Source: Candidatus Spechtbacteria bacterium (GTDB lineage Bacteria; Patescibacteriota; Minisyncoccia; Spechtbacterales; JACPHP01). Taken from it: 64,000 nt of DNA. Shown here in pieces: positions 40,420 to 59,400 of the stretch (the stretch's first letter is position 1; every line of letters starts with the position of its first letter). The stretch is taken from the NCBI GenBank assembly GCA_016188605.1, contig JACPHP010000015.1, positions 18,833-82,832 of the forward strand, read 5' to 3'. The notes beneath the pieces are model-generated. The model saw nothing but the letters and a program-made list of their open reading frames with translations, had not been told where the DNA came from and searched no databases. Made by a program: the position numbers and the translations under genes.

Positions 40420-40545
40420 CTGCTTTCGCAACTTGCCAATGCTCCGCATTGGCACACTGATATACACAGATACGAACACGGATATACACCGATTTTATCT
40501 GTGTTAATCCGTTTTCTTATCCACGTTAATCCGTGTGTCAGTGCG
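40420..40545 (-). repeat. IVS-like insertion, family A copy 1 (in 23S, near E. coli ~2375)
   Basis: ccaatgctccgcattggcacactgatatacacagatacgaacacggatatacaccgattttatctgtgttaatccgttttcttatccacgttaatccgtgtgtcagtgcgaagcactgacatc. Identical to 44207-44332. Confidence 0.7.
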
Positions 40546-40693
40546 AAGCACTGACATCTTATACTCCCGCTTGATTTTACTCTCGAGGTTTCTAAGAGCG
40601 CGGCTTACTTGCCTTGCAGTAAAGCCAGTTTGTGCCTTTACGCGACCACTCCGATTTCCATCCGGAGTTAACTGACCTTAATAAACGCCTCCG

Positions 40694-41344
40694 CTACAAT
40701 TTAGGCAATGTGTTCCCTAGCATTCCTAGCTTATACCGCATTGATGGCAAAATATATGGATCTATCAATTCTACAAATTTTTCAACCGTAGAACTGTTTA
40801 TATACAATTGCCAAAGGTTTCTCTGCGGCCGCAAATGTGTTTGAACACCAAATTTATTTTCCAATATCTTAATTAGTATAAGATTTTCTGCTTTGGAAAA
40901 ACTTTGCGTATTCAATATCAGCGCGCGATGATGCTTTGATTTTATTGAGCCATCATCCATAAACCAAACTGCTAATACTAATGGCGTGAGCCAACGTTCG
41001 ATCTGTCTCGGTAAAACTTTATGCTTATCTTTATAAAATTGTTGGGCATAAAATCTAAACGCTCCATGACTGATCGTTGAAAACCAATGTTCACGATATA
41101 TCCTATCAAATACAACATGTTGTTTTTCTTGAGGCGGGGTTAATACCCATTCTTTGAATTTTTCATATAACCAAAGAGTGTATTTTTCCTGCCAATATGC
41201 ATGTTCAATCTTCAAACGATAGGTACGTTCGTGATTTTGGGTTTCAAGATGTCCATCACCAAGTAGTACACCAATGAGAATCTCTTTCTGCCCCTCCGAT
41301 AACCGAAGCGTTTGTTTATACGCCTCAATCTTCTTTGATCTCAT
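40694..41344 (-). CDS. LAGLIDADG homing endonuclease (two-motif)
   Basis: LIGVLLGDGHL and LAVWFMDDGS motifs. 216 aa. Confidence 0.8.
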   Translation of the reverse strand: MRSKKIEAYKQTLRLSEGQKEILIGVLLGDGHLETQNHERTYRLKIEHAYWQEKYTLWLYEKFKEWVLTPPQEKQHVVFDRIYREHWFSTISHGAFRFYAQQFYKDKHKVLPRQIERWLTPLVLAVWFMDDGSIKSKHHRALILNTQSFSKAENLILIKILENKFGVQTHLRPQRNLWQLYINSSTVEKFVELIDPYILPSMRYKLGMLGNTLPKL

Positions 41345-41626
41345 AAATGTAGGTGATCCTTACGGATCCTTATGGTCGCCCATAAGTTCAGACTATATCA
41401 CCCTCATTACTCCATAAAGTAATGAGTTTCAGCGTGTAGTCGTTGAGGGGAATGCAATCTTCAAAAATTATGCATTCTTCCCTGCTGATAAGCCGCATTA
41501 CGTGATTTTCACCCTTTCGACTAGGTACACGTACATACTGCATCCATTTAAGGAACGGTTTTCCCAGCATATAGCTGATTTTGCAATGCAATCTTACGAC
41601 TGCATGGCCCCTGTGGCTGTAGCAAG
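40706..41626 (-). mobile_element. Group I intron (I3) near 23S ~L2240, carrying a double-motif LAGLIDADG ORF in its 3' part
   Basis: Exon ...GGGGCGCTAGCCTCAAGAGT | intron | AGCGGAGG.... S-element GTGATATAGTCTGAAC at 41410-41396. The ORF stop TAG overlaps the 3' junction. Confidence 0.55.
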
Positions 41627-41949
41627 CCACTCTTGAGGCTAGCGCCCCACTAAAACTGCCTACCATCCACTGTTCCCTGTGTTTCGCGCAAGGTTAGTTT
41701 TTACATTTTAAAAGATGGGTGTTGCATTGACGGCTCCATCTCGCCCGAAAGCGAAACTTCAAAGCCTACCCACTACGCTACGCAGTCAAAATATAAAAAC
41801 AATGGAAAGCTGCAGTAAAGCTCCTGGGGTCTTTTCGTCTTGTTGCAGGACAACGGCATCTTTACCGTTACTGCATTTTCACCTAGCTCTTCGTTGAGAC
41901 AGTTGCCCAGTCATTACACCTTTCGTGCGGGACAGAAGTTACCTGCCAC

Positions 41950-56869: not shown

Positions 56870-57893
56870 GGATCAATGAGCATATCATCGTCCCACGCCA
56901 CCGGACGAACGGTTTTACCGTATCCTGGCGGCTTCCATCGAATGCTTCTTGCCAAGAAAACGCATCTGTTCACGCAATCGCACCATTTCGCTGAAACCCT
57001 TATCTGTAAGGTGTTCTTTATTGCGATACATAGTGACAATTCTCTTAAACAGTATGTATGTTTTTGCTTTCTTTGCTTGAAGATGATTTGCATCTAAAAA
57101 TGGAAAAAGATACGCTACCAAATCTTTTGAACTGGTAATTTTATACTTCGCGTGGGGGTACCATCCGTACCTCTCATACGAGCAATCATATATTTTCCCA
57201 CAACCAATTGTCACAAGAATTCGTTCGAGGATTTCACGATCATCTGCGCGGAGTTCGATTTCAAACTCGGCACGTATTTCGACAGAGCGAGGATGTTTAT
57301 AATCTCGTTCTTTTCGTTTTCCAACGCTTACCGCAAACGATCCTTCACCATCAATGAATCCTGCGACATATTGAGGAGGCAATTTTTTTCGATGAATTCG
57401 CTCCTTTCCAATCGGACCCTTCAAAGATAAATTTCTTTGGAAAGGTTTACGACTGGTACTACGAGCTCTGCTGACTTCTTGCATGGAATAAATAAAAATT
57501 ACTTTCTATCCTTCTATAATCCCAAGGTTATTTTACCGTGGAAATTAATACCAAACAAGATCTCCCCCGGTCATCTATAAAACAATTTGAAAACATCTCG
57601 ATCACCCTATACGTAGCAATAAATATACACAAAGTGACTTCCCCATGTACTCGAAGGGTGGTCTTATTACTACGCCTCAACAGTGATTCAAGCTATCTTC
57701 TGCTACCCTCGATTGTAGTTGTAACTATAATCGAGACCAAGTTTAACTTGATTTCGCCCTTCATCCTGGGGGTCACCCCTCGCAGGACTGCGATTTTGCT
57801 TCAAAGCGCTTTGTTCGCTTCGGTTGGACTTCTCACCAACAATAAAGTGGAAAGTCACCAACTCGTTCCATAAACTGCAGGGCACCCGAGTAC
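56870..57893 (-). mobile_element. Intron in 16S at ~S1391-1396 (after CTTGTAC) carrying a LAGLIDADG ORF
   Basis: Exon discontinuity CTTGTAC | ~1 kb | ACCGCCCGTCAC. No canonical S-element seen, so intron subclass is uncertain. Confidence 0.5.
56915..57484 (-). CDS. LAGLIDADG homing endonuclease (single-motif)
   Basis: YVAGFIDGEGSF motif. 189 aa. Confidence 0.8.
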   Translation of the reverse strand: MQEVSRARSTSRKPFQRNLSLKGPIGKERIHRKKLPPQYVAGFIDGEGSFAVSVGKRKERDYKHPRSVEIRAEFEIELRADDREILERILVTIGCGKIYDCSYERYGWYPHAKYKITSSKDLVAYLFPFLDANHLQAKKAKTYILFKRIVTMYRNKEHLTDKGFSEMVRLREQMRFLGKKHSMEAARIR

Positions 57894-58796
57894 AAGACTC
57901 GGGAACGTATTCACCGCGCCATAGCTGATGCGCGATTACTAGCGATTCCGGCTTCATGAGGTCGAGTTGCAGACCTCAATCCGAACTGGGGCTAATTTTG
58001 ATGGGATTTGCTCCGCCTTACGGCTTGGCGTCCCTCTGTAATTAGCCATTGTATCATGCGTGTTGCCCAGGGCATCAAAGGGTCATGCTGATTTGGCGTC
58101 ATCCCCACCTTCCTCCCCGTTATGCGGGGCAGTATCGTGTGACACATATAACACACAATAGGGGTTGCGTTTGTTACCGGACTTAACCGAGCGCCTCACG
58201 GCACAAACTGACGACAACCATGCAACACCTGCCCAATTGTCCTTGTGAGACATTCTCCCTTTCGGGAGAACTTCAACTGGGTGTCAAGCCCTGGTGAGGT
58301 TCCTCGTTTGTCATCGAATTGAACCGCATGATCCACCGCTTGTGCGAGTCCCCGTCTATTCCTTTGAGTTTTAGCCTTGCGGCCGTACTACCCAGGCGGA
58401 ATACTTAACGCGTTAGCTTCGCCACGTGTAGGGTCGACACTACACACAGCTAGTATTCATCGTTTACAGCGTGGAATACTGGGGTATCTAATCCCATTCT
58501 CTCCCCACGCTTTCGTCCCTCAGCGTCAGAGTCATGCCAGCTGATTGCCTTCGCCTTTGGTGTTCCCCATGATATCAACGGATTTCACTCCTACACCATG
58601 AGTTCCATCAGCCTCTCATGCTCTCTAGTTTTGACGTTTCCTGCGCAGATTCAAGGTTAAGCCCTGAAATTTAACACTGGACTATCAAAACCGCCTACGG
58701 ACGCTTTACGCCCAATAATTCCGGATAACGCTCGGGGCCCTCGTATTACCGCCGCTGCTGGCACGAGGTTAGCGGCCCCTTATTCCTGAAGTACAA

Positions 58797-58940
58797 TCAA
58801 ACCGCTCCTCGCTACGCTCGGAGCACACCGATAAACGCAGATACGAACACGGATATACGCGGATATAATAATCCGTGTAAATCCATTTTCTTATCCGTGT
58901 GAATCCGTGTACGTTCCGAACGCAGTGAGGAACGGTCTTT
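58797..58940 (-). repeat. IVS-like insertion (family-A-related) in the 16S ~450-480 variable loop
   Basis: ~140 nt absent from E. coli 16S between ...CTGAAGTAC and GAAAAGCAGTTTACAACCCGAAGG. Shares cgaacacggatatac / ccgtgt words and a ccgaacgcagtgaggaac end with the 23S copies. Confidence 0.6.
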
Positions 58941-59284
58941 TTCCTTCAGAAAAGCAGTTTACAACCCGAAGGCCTTCATCCTGCACGCGGCGTCGCTCGG
59001 TCAGGCTTTCGCCCATTGCCGAAGATTCTCGACTGCAGCCTCCCGTAGGAGTAGGGCCCGTGTCTCAGTGCCCTTGTTGGGGGTCGTGCTCTCACACCCC
59101 CTACCCGTCATAGCCTTGGTGGGCCATTACCTCACCAACTAGCTGATAGGCCACAGGCCATTCCAGTACCACCTGAGTTTTACTTGCTCTTGCGAGCAAG
59201 ACCATCAAGTATTAGCTCCGATTTCTCGGAGTTATTCTTGAGTACTGGGTATGTTCCTATGTATTACTAACCCGTTCGCCACTA

Positions 59285-59400
59285 TCCTACGCTCCGCGCT
59301 ACGCGCGGAGCTACGGAATAGCAAGCTCTCCCATATTTTGAGCGCCTGCGATTCCGAAGCTCCTCACGCAGTGAGGAGCGAAGGATCGTTCGACTTGCAT
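59285..59400 (-). repeat. Structured insertion, family-B-related, in the 16S 5' domain (V1 region)
   Basis: cgctccgcgctacgcgcggagctacggaatagcaagctc...gcgattccgaagctcctcacgcagtgaggagcgaaggatcg. Confidence 0.5.

Follow-up and report, generated by a model that had tools for sequence, protein, structure and literature searches.

The window analysed here is a 64,000-nt stretch (positions 18,833 to 82,832 of contig JACPHP010000015.1) of a metagenome-assembled genome (MAG) from Candidatus Spechtbacteria, a lineage of the Parcubacteria in the candidate phyla radiation (CPR), whose next relatives by RpoB are Spechtbacteria-like sequences of 71-79% identity. Its rRNA genes are intron-rich and lie on the minus strand, as do all rRNA-associated elements described below. 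The 23S rRNA gene occupies 38625-45770 (3′ end approximate), as defined by Rfam large-subunit matches (43414-45770 and 39731-41869), group I matches and mapping onto E. coli, and contains at least five group I introns, three of them with LAGLIDADG-family or LAGLIDADG-like open reading frames (ORFs). The 16S gene (56296-59454) was delimited by an Rfam small-subunit match, sequence reading with motif search and E. coli mapping, which place its 5′ end at 59454 and its 3′ end near 56296; the 5S gene lies at 38414-38525. In addition to introns, these genes carry self-folding cassettes of ~100-190 nt at the tips of surface helices, comprising a family A, a family B and an insert in 23S helix 25. An earlier note, made from the sequence alone, had claimed structured insertions shared between the 16S gene, the 23S gene and the 23S leader, and such insertions are indeed present, as repeats far beyond chance expectation.

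Element positions were mapped against E. coli rRNA, whose numbering is used throughout, and against Rfam models. Every A and B element and the helix-25 insert fell on a helix tip of the rRNA, and each is flanked on both sides by collinear rRNA sequence. Their minimum free energy (MFE) folds are extended, mostly double-stranded stem-loops far more stable than shuffled controls (z of -4 to -12), which bears out the folding proposed for them earlier. No A or B element gave an intron-family or other plausible Rfam match at E-values up to 1, in scans that detected the true introns nearby, and Rfam 15 contains no family matching them. Introns were rejected as an identity for these elements, which are too small and showed no catalytic core in the covariance-model scan; archaeal bulge-helix-bulge introns were set aside as well, no such motif having been noticed on reading the elements, in which no formal search was made.

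Cassettes in the rRNA genes

Two members of family A are identical. A1 (44204-44327; fold z = -7.4) occupies the tip of 23S helix 45, between E. coli positions 1144 and 1186, and thus lies at the helix-45 site of intervening sequences (IVSs) to which it had been assigned. A2 (40435-40558) sits inside a 184-nt expansion of the domain V hairpin just 5′ of E. coli 2369, which we take to be H86. The two copies match at 100% over 124 nt and at 96% over 138 nt (40421-40558 against 44190-44327), with a spacing of 3769 nt. They had been put at 126 nt and at 40420-40545 and 44207-44332, coordinates that are off by 3-15 nt; the identity itself holds, over 124 nt. Since these 124 identical nt stand at unrelated 23S sites, recent copying or gene conversion is needed, as the earlier note had argued. 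The closest relative retrieved (L060, RpoB 79% identical) has short hairpins in place of A2 and of the family B element B1; the comparison with L060 covers these two sites. Presence among close relatives is thus sporadic, as is typical of IVSs. A Logan contig from a different run (L002) is 100% identical across B1 and across the rRNA-to-A2 junction; B1 and A2 thus cannot be put down to an error of one assembly.

In A1 and A2 an AT-rich hairpin of ~85 nt is preceded by a perfect hairpin of 8 bp, GUCAGUGC-UUC-GCACUGAC, and followed by another perfect one, GCCAAUGC-GGA-GCAUUGGC. In the MFE folds the A-type stems are ~40-bp duplexes with few mismatches, and for A1 the four-way and long-hairpin forms are nearly iso-energetic (-52.4 against -56.8 kcal/mol). 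A solo hairpin in the 23S leader (45968-45986), GUCAGUGC-UUC-GCAUUGGC, joins the left arm of the A1 5′ hairpin to the right arm of its 3′ hairpin, and matches A1/A2 exactly over 14 nt; it may be either a progenitor stem or what remained once the cassette interior had been deleted. The family A 21-mer CAGATACGAACACGGATATAC had no match among GTDB species genomes; JGI metagenomes gave just two, which fell in a coding sequence and an AT-rich spacer and were irrelevant, and at the sensitivity of this search family A looks lineage-private.

Family B is represented in the rRNA genes by three copies, which were confirmed together with the perfect internal hairpin ascribed to them, their coordinates being slightly corrected. 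B1 (43438-43549), a four-way-junction module at E. coli 1854-1878 of the 23S rRNA, presumably the tip of H68, scores 90.6 bits with the family B covariance model R1. B2 (45409-45521; 106.2 bits) occupies the variable hairpin just 3′ of E. coli 270 (positions 276-295 of the Rfam large-subunit model), and B3 (59279-59391; 107.3 bits) the tip of h6 in the V1 region of the 16S rRNA. On the plus strand the perfect hairpin reads GCTCTTTGC-GGA-GCAAAGAGC. A B element is an inverted pair of a 33-nt unit, TCCTWCGCTC-N4-C-N2-CG-N4-GAGCTWCGGA, with a spacer of 12-47 nt, and each unit is itself a hairpin. A single B-like unit, CCUCCUGCG-UUCCGACUUCGUCGGAA-CUUCGGAUGG, stands in the 16S leader (59473-59510), where R1 gives a weak match (59409-59513, E about 0.11).

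The remaining cassettes combine features of the two families. A3 (58804-58933), at the tip of 16S h17 (V3), has a core related to that of A1/A2, with two 36-nt blocks in common (92% and 86% identity), between B-type flanking hairpins, GUUCCUCACUGCGUUCGGAAC and GCUCCGAGCGUAGCGAGGAGC. A4 (45800-45930), recognised by its flank similarity to A3 and by leader-trailer cofolding, forms a branch of the 23S leader-trailer processing stem; only the flanking mini-hairpins are common to A4 and A3 (21 nt at 95% and 17 nt at 94%), and its AT-rich core differs from the others, with no significant similarity to the A1/A2 core. Both had been listed as related copies of family A, which is right for the core blocks of the 16S copy, but the copy in the 23S leader shares with it only the flanking hairpins. 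The helix-25 insert (44930-45115, ~185 nt), between E. coli 528 and 621 of the 23S rRNA, gives a weak R1 match (E about 0.14); its flanking hairpins are GC-rich, and its long central arm, composed of AAAUCUC-type units, has two small hairpins inside it. This arm has at least five dispersed intergenic relatives in the window: a hairpin of the same architecture between rpsF and ssb (14382-14505), and others at 8724-8836, 10847-10972, 18961-19061 and 63569-63681.

Because A3 gives a weak R1 match (22.5 bits, E about 0.009) and carries a 3′ hairpin of the B type with tandem G·A, A and B can be regarded as one modular architecture of flanking hairpin, central arm and second flanking hairpin. The two families proposed earlier are therefore real as distinct repeats, but they are variants of this architecture. 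Since A3 and A4 mix cores and flanks and the helix-25 arm recurs between genes, the cassettes have a common scaffold with swapped arms, at least one arm type being a dispersed intergenic repeat.

More hairpin families of 90-130 nt occur in the window, at 7042-7164, 12069-12163, 27981-28096, 34496-34585, 35766-35848 and 40060-40180. They are composed of heptamer-like units (for example TGACCAA/TTGGGAT, GAATCAT and ACGAAT) and lie mostly between ORFs, a placement not systematically checked, with the copy at 40060-40180 inside a group I intron. Short-read Logan contigs terminate at such hairpins.

Structure and distribution of family B

The structure of family B was analysed in an alignment of 25 copies, each oriented in the sense of its host RNA. 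A four-way junction, made of a closing stem, hairpin 1, a central stem and hairpin 3, leaves 85% of the alignment cells paired, and 27 of its pairs show changes in both partners. Five pairs covary in hairpin 1, which is 98% paired, and six in hairpin 3. A single long hairpin performs differently: each of the four pairs that discriminate between the two folds is broken in 14-17 of the 25 sequences, and where hairpin 1 would pair with hairpin 3 no pair has changed in both partners. Of the two folds, the four-way junction is the better fit to the covariation of family B. The sequence of hairpin 1, GCUCYUUGC-UCC-GCAARGAGC, hardly varies, and in sense-oriented copies this hairpin is always the one on the 5′ side; tandem G·A is frequent in hairpin 3.

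G·U pairs are commoner than A·C pairs in the well-aligned helices (36 against 6), so that it is the transcribed strand, or one particular DNA strand, on which family B keeps its pairing. This excess of G·U suggests that selection acts on the transcribed strand. Both the excess (G·T in DNA) and the bias in orientation could also arise from a strand-specific mechanism that involves single-stranded DNA, so that the strand bias falls short of proof of an RNA-level function. Structure maintained by compensatory change on the RNA strand was found for family B, family A having too few distinct copies for this comparison.

Family B is not confined to this genome; it was found across the CPR in 16S, 23S, 5S and RNase P RNA, beside tRNAs and at some intergenic sites. 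The B unit pattern retrieved 50 loci among GTDB species-representative genomes, of which ~22 lie in variable helices of 16S or 23S rRNA, mostly in CPR MAGs. The rRNA sites include h6 and h9/10 of the 16S and the ~271, H25, H45, H63 and H68 sites of the 23S rRNA; modules at the B2 site are also found in L010, L012, L027, L035 and L044. One locus is a 90-nt module in loop C of a 201-nt 5S gene (L023), and another replaces P3 of an RNase P RNA (L042), a sub-threshold match to RF00010 (40 bits against a gathering threshold of 100, E = 6e-11). With R1, two elements were found in several other CPR rRNA regions, and five full elements in apparently intergenic DNA, with no Rfam non-coding RNA nearby. 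Most of the B copies found lie in stable-RNA genes, in one orientation. The pattern had no matches in IMG/VR viral contigs and hence there is no sign of a phage vector.

The 16S gene of the window is 75-82% identical to the 16S genes fetched, and B modules at different sites in different phyla are 85-92% identical to one another, suggesting that the element is conserved about as much as its host, or more. Copies cluster neither by site nor by genome, those of h6 excepted. In two complete 23S genes from Parcubacteria family B is absent; one of them (L066) has unrelated AT-rich low-complexity hairpins at ~271, H25, H45, H63 and H68.

Single B units also stand directly beside or between tRNA genes (L015, L030, L031 and L032), in L032 with a partial duplicate of a tRNA 5′ end upstream of the unit. 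In the Bacteroidales MAG CSMAG_487, a non-CPR genome, the 33-nt unit is both dispersed and in tandem, within GCAGTCGGCAGTCC-type repeats on at least seven contigs (loci L008, L016, L019, L043, L046, L049 and L050). Three contigs with B modules (L047, L023 and L045) are labelled 'uncultured Gammaproteobacteria'. The 23S gene of L047 is 77-83% identical to CPR 23S genes compared with 71-74% to that of E. coli, and because it is nearer to the CPR the L047 contig is probably misbinned.

Origin and fate of the cassettes

IVSs excised by RNase III are known from 23S helices 9, 25 and 45 of Salmonella, Yersinia, Campylobacter, Leptospira and Coxiella, and 16S IVSs from some Campylobacter, Helicobacter and Clostridium. 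The cassettes are like them in the replacement of a helix tip by an extended stem-loop, in the use of the H25 and H45 sites, in their sporadic presence among relatives and in a suspected horizontal or intragenomic spread. They differ in that the module recurs at at least seven rRNA sites and in 5S and RNase P RNA, in that covariation favours a four-way junction over a plain stem, and in that the module is conserved across phyla and known here from sequence alone. At the level of the DNA the elements would be classed as IVSs by position and structure.

REPINs are doublets of repetitive extragenic palindromic (REP) sequences that form hairpins and are mobilised by RAYT transposases (Y1/HUH). Family B is built in a similar way, from inverted copies of a ~30-nt imperfect palindrome with a spacer, ~100 nt in all, with a strand-specific hairpin and some intergenic copies; the AAATCTC hairpin family of the helix-25 arm, like REPINs, has multiple extragenic copies in one genome. 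In contrast to REPINs, there is no RAYT gene among the 30 ORFs of the window, extragenic copies of A and B are not numerous in ~71.6 kb (the 64-kb window and ~7.6 kb of flanks), and most copies lie inside stable-RNA genes in one orientation. Family B would thus be REPIN-like in architecture but, so far, not in copy number or cognate transposase. Elhai and colleagues reportedly described, in 2008, very small mobile repeated elements together with heptamer-based short tandemly repeated repetitive (STRR) sequences in heterocystous cyanobacteria. Like the repeats studied here, these are small, dispersed, also located inside structured RNA genes and accompanied by heptamer-based low-complexity hairpins; they differ in phylum, sequences and architecture and have no four-way-junction module.

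CPR bacteria are known for the many insertions in their rRNA genes, and published surveys have characterised the introns and homing endonucleases among them. In the available portions of two such surveys (Tsurumaki et al. 2022/2024; PMC9297842, PMC11270868), insertions of at least 100 bp relative to E. coli are counted and classed by intron and ORF content, the short ones are left uncharacterised, no common sequence or structure module is reported, and no 5S insertion is mentioned, in contrast to the 90-nt 5S module of L023. In the 2024 survey (PMC11270868) the short CPR insertions without ORFs at sites 23IS2 and 23IS4 are considered likely RNase III IVSs, with Brown et al. 2015 cited for insertions missing from transcripts. 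The cassettes resemble these 'insertion sequences' in that they come from the same organisms and are ORF-less, non-intron and mostly shorter than 200 bp, at recurrent sites. They are also like rRNA expansion segments, being insertions at surface helices that leave the core fold intact, with the difference that they are known here from genes and not from mature RNA. For 5S expansions, spread by recombination or mobile elements has been proposed (Stepanov and Fox 2021; PMC7812874) in a study outside whose scope the CPR lay; the part of it accessible to us reports no single module common to 5S, 16S, 23S and RNase P RNA. In the literature searched, including a recent survey of Patescibacteria introns, no description of the B module was found.

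We consider it reasonably probable that the elements are REPIN-like palindromic cassettes which spread by copying from site to site and are tolerated solely as extensions of surface helices. Insertion of these hairpin cassettes would take place in the DNA, where stable-RNA genes encode the terminal loops of surface-exposed helices. In each cassette a stem that carries on from the helix of the host would close a structure of two short hairpins, the first of them GC-rich, with a central arm between them. The RNA strand could fold as a compact four-way junction, or alternatively as a long hairpin, and would thereby lengthen the host helix. Family B would be the old, CPR-wide version, composed of two inverted 33-nt units; the lineage-specific versions would be family A and the helix-25 insert, with central arms like the AT-rich low-complexity hairpins in the intergenic regions of this genome. 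Spread may occur via ectopic recombination or gene conversion between palindromes, or via some hairpin-specific transposition yet to be identified, and persistence would be restricted to places where a well-folded extension leaves the assembly of the ribosome or RNase P undisturbed. Tolerance for harmless helix extension only would maintain base pairing on the transcribed strand. In this account the mechanism of copying and the fate of the cassettes in RNA are what we infer; their anatomy and insertion sites, the covariation and strand asymmetry, the occurrence in several RNAs and lineages, the difference in presence from a relative and the recent duplication are observed.

As to that fate, the removal of the ~40-bp near-perfect A duplexes by an RNase III-type activity appears evenly poised between yes and no, and for the B junctions we lean slightly towards their being kept as expansion segments. 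Retention explains the occurrence of B in loop C of 5S rRNA and in P3 of RNase P RNA no less well than excision does. More tentatively, and with our doubts prevailing, family B may be an undescribed class of structured cassette, a four-way-junction RNA module on the hairpin tips of at least four stable RNAs (16S, 23S, 5S and RNase P) across the CPR, in one orientation and under RNA-level constraint, and would then be either a helix-tip mobile element or a docking or processing platform for a CPR-specific factor.

Several observations weigh against copying between sites under bare tolerance. Of the hallmarks of miniature inverted-repeat transposable elements (MITEs), inverted termini are present; the direct repeats flanking A1 (GUG/GUG) and A2 (AA/AA) are too short to be called target-site duplications. 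The ~71.6 kb searched, about a tenth of a typical CPR genome by estimated size, contains no A or B copy outside the rRNA region, so that further copies beyond the rRNA genes were found for the helix-25 central arm (at least five intergenic relatives) and not for the two families themselves. A Pfam scan detected no transposase, RAYT or IS200-type gene among the 30 ORFs of the window. The near-invariance of the 5′ hairpin of B across phyla suggests more than bare tolerance. In addition, B3 is apparently orthologous to the h6 modules of L033, L053 and L056, of which L033 and L053 align contiguously through the element with their 16S flanks; this suggests that the h6 copies are vertically inherited, and the distribution of B could then largely reflect old descent with losses rather than mobility. 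Finally, the pattern by which the 25 copies were collected fixes their conserved ends and leaves free the variable stem positions, where the covariation appears, and both RNAalifold and single-sequence MFE folding prefer the long-hairpin pairing for the conserved segments of B, with close energies. The four-way junction is therefore argued from covariation, at the positions that the pattern leaves free. Thermodynamics was tried as an arbiter between the two folds and rejected, since the energies are close and only covariation discriminates.

A serious competitor, whose probability we place a little below even, is that the cassettes are classical IVSs, as the earlier note had proposed: RNase III would cut the duplexes in the precursor without religation, and the mature 23S and 16S rRNAs would be in pieces, with breaks at H25, H45, h6, h17 and the domain V site. 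Both classical 23S IVS sites are indeed occupied, by A1 and the helix-25 insert, the A-type stems have ~40 bp and few mismatches, A4 is part of the 23S leader-trailer processing stem, and elements present here are absent from the relative L060; the CPR literature also takes short ORF-less insertions as probable RNase III IVSs (PMC11270868). Excision accounts less readily for the B modules of 5S loop C and RNase P P3, sites at which a break in the RNA would be unusual, and the conserved loops, junction sequences and tandem G·A of B exceed the needs of a cleavage substrate of double-stranded RNA. Furthermore, no rnc gene (RNase III) was detected by the Pfam scan among the 30 ORFs of the window, which is a small part of the genome.

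It is unlikely, in our view, that the B junctions are functional expansion segments, kept in the mature RNAs as a platform (where a CPR-specific protein might bind, or which might make up for ribosomal proteins missing from the CPR) and recruited to several RNAs. Such a role would agree with the sense-strand covariation and G·U excess, with the nearly invariant 5′ hairpin in lineages whose 16S genes are only 75-82% identical, with the h6 module kept in several lineages and with the presence of B in four stable-RNA classes. However, the module is patchy, being absent at H68 of L060 and from the two complete Parcubacteria 23S genes, and in other lineages unrelated AT-rich hairpins stand at these sites; copies also occur between genes, beside tRNAs and, as a dispersed repeat of the unit, in the Bacteroidales MAG, and no candidate partner protein was identified.

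Growth in situ, by slippage of heptamer-like units and template switching that perfects quasi-palindromes, with likeness between sites due to convergence and occasional gene conversion, seems improbable as a general explanation. The central arms are indeed low-complexity heptamer-like repeats, as in many intergenic hairpins, and other Parcubacteria carry different low-complexity hairpins at the same sites, but the 124 identical nt at two unrelated sites require a copying event, and the GC-rich non-repetitive B units, more than 85% identical across sites, RNAs and phyla, are left without an account. That repeats were introduced or collapsed in metagenome assembly is scarcely credible, even though the source is a MAG and short-read Logan contigs break at these repeats, since L002 reproduces B1 and the rRNA-to-A2 junction at 100% in a different run (the A1 junctions being outside this confirmation), homologous B modules occupy the same sites in many independent assemblies, and collinear rRNA flanks each element.

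Many short CPR rRNA insertions are one recurring foldable module across sites, RNAs and phyla, of which lineage-specific versions borrow the arms of dispersed hairpins. These short insertions thereby gain a concrete anatomy and a covariance model for searches. The questions of how palindromes enter essential RNA genes, whether CPR rRNA is fragmented or expanded, and whether a junction-specific protein or nuclease exists become testable. On the practical side, the cassettes break short-read assemblies at rRNA genes, and they lengthen V1 and V3, regions targeted by amplicon surveys.

Setting of the rRNA genes

In the 16S gene, an insertion of ~1 kb at ~E. coli 1395 (56869-57878, minus strand) contains a LAGLIDADG-like ORF (56915-57484) and a weak Rfam match to group II D1-D4 (57416-57513), and a group I intron lies at ~E. 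coli 1498 (56341-56771, minus strand). The Rfam end-to-end 16S match (57844-59454) misaligns the true 3′ part of the gene. Between 16S and 23S lie ~7.7 kb of protein genes, followed by tRNA-Ile and tRNA-Ala and then two further genes. The protein genes form a five-gene cluster that includes purA (48600-56290) and separates 16S from tRNA-Ile, tRNA-Ala and 23S; in the relatives L063-L065 the same cluster is not beside rRNA. A further Spechtbacteria relative (L062, 750-2139) encodes a reverse transcriptase (RVT_1) beside a bAvd-like gene, ~8 kb from rpoB, a pair that from its Pfam labels looks like a diversity-generating retroelement.

The 3′ end of the 16S rRNA (56296-56340, minus strand) reads ...GGAUGGAUCAUUUUUUC, with a U run in place of the CCUCC anti-Shine-Dalgarno sequence. 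In the 30 nt upstream of 27 ORFs of the window GGAGG is almost never present, and translation in this Spechtbacteria lineage may start without Shine-Dalgarno pairing.

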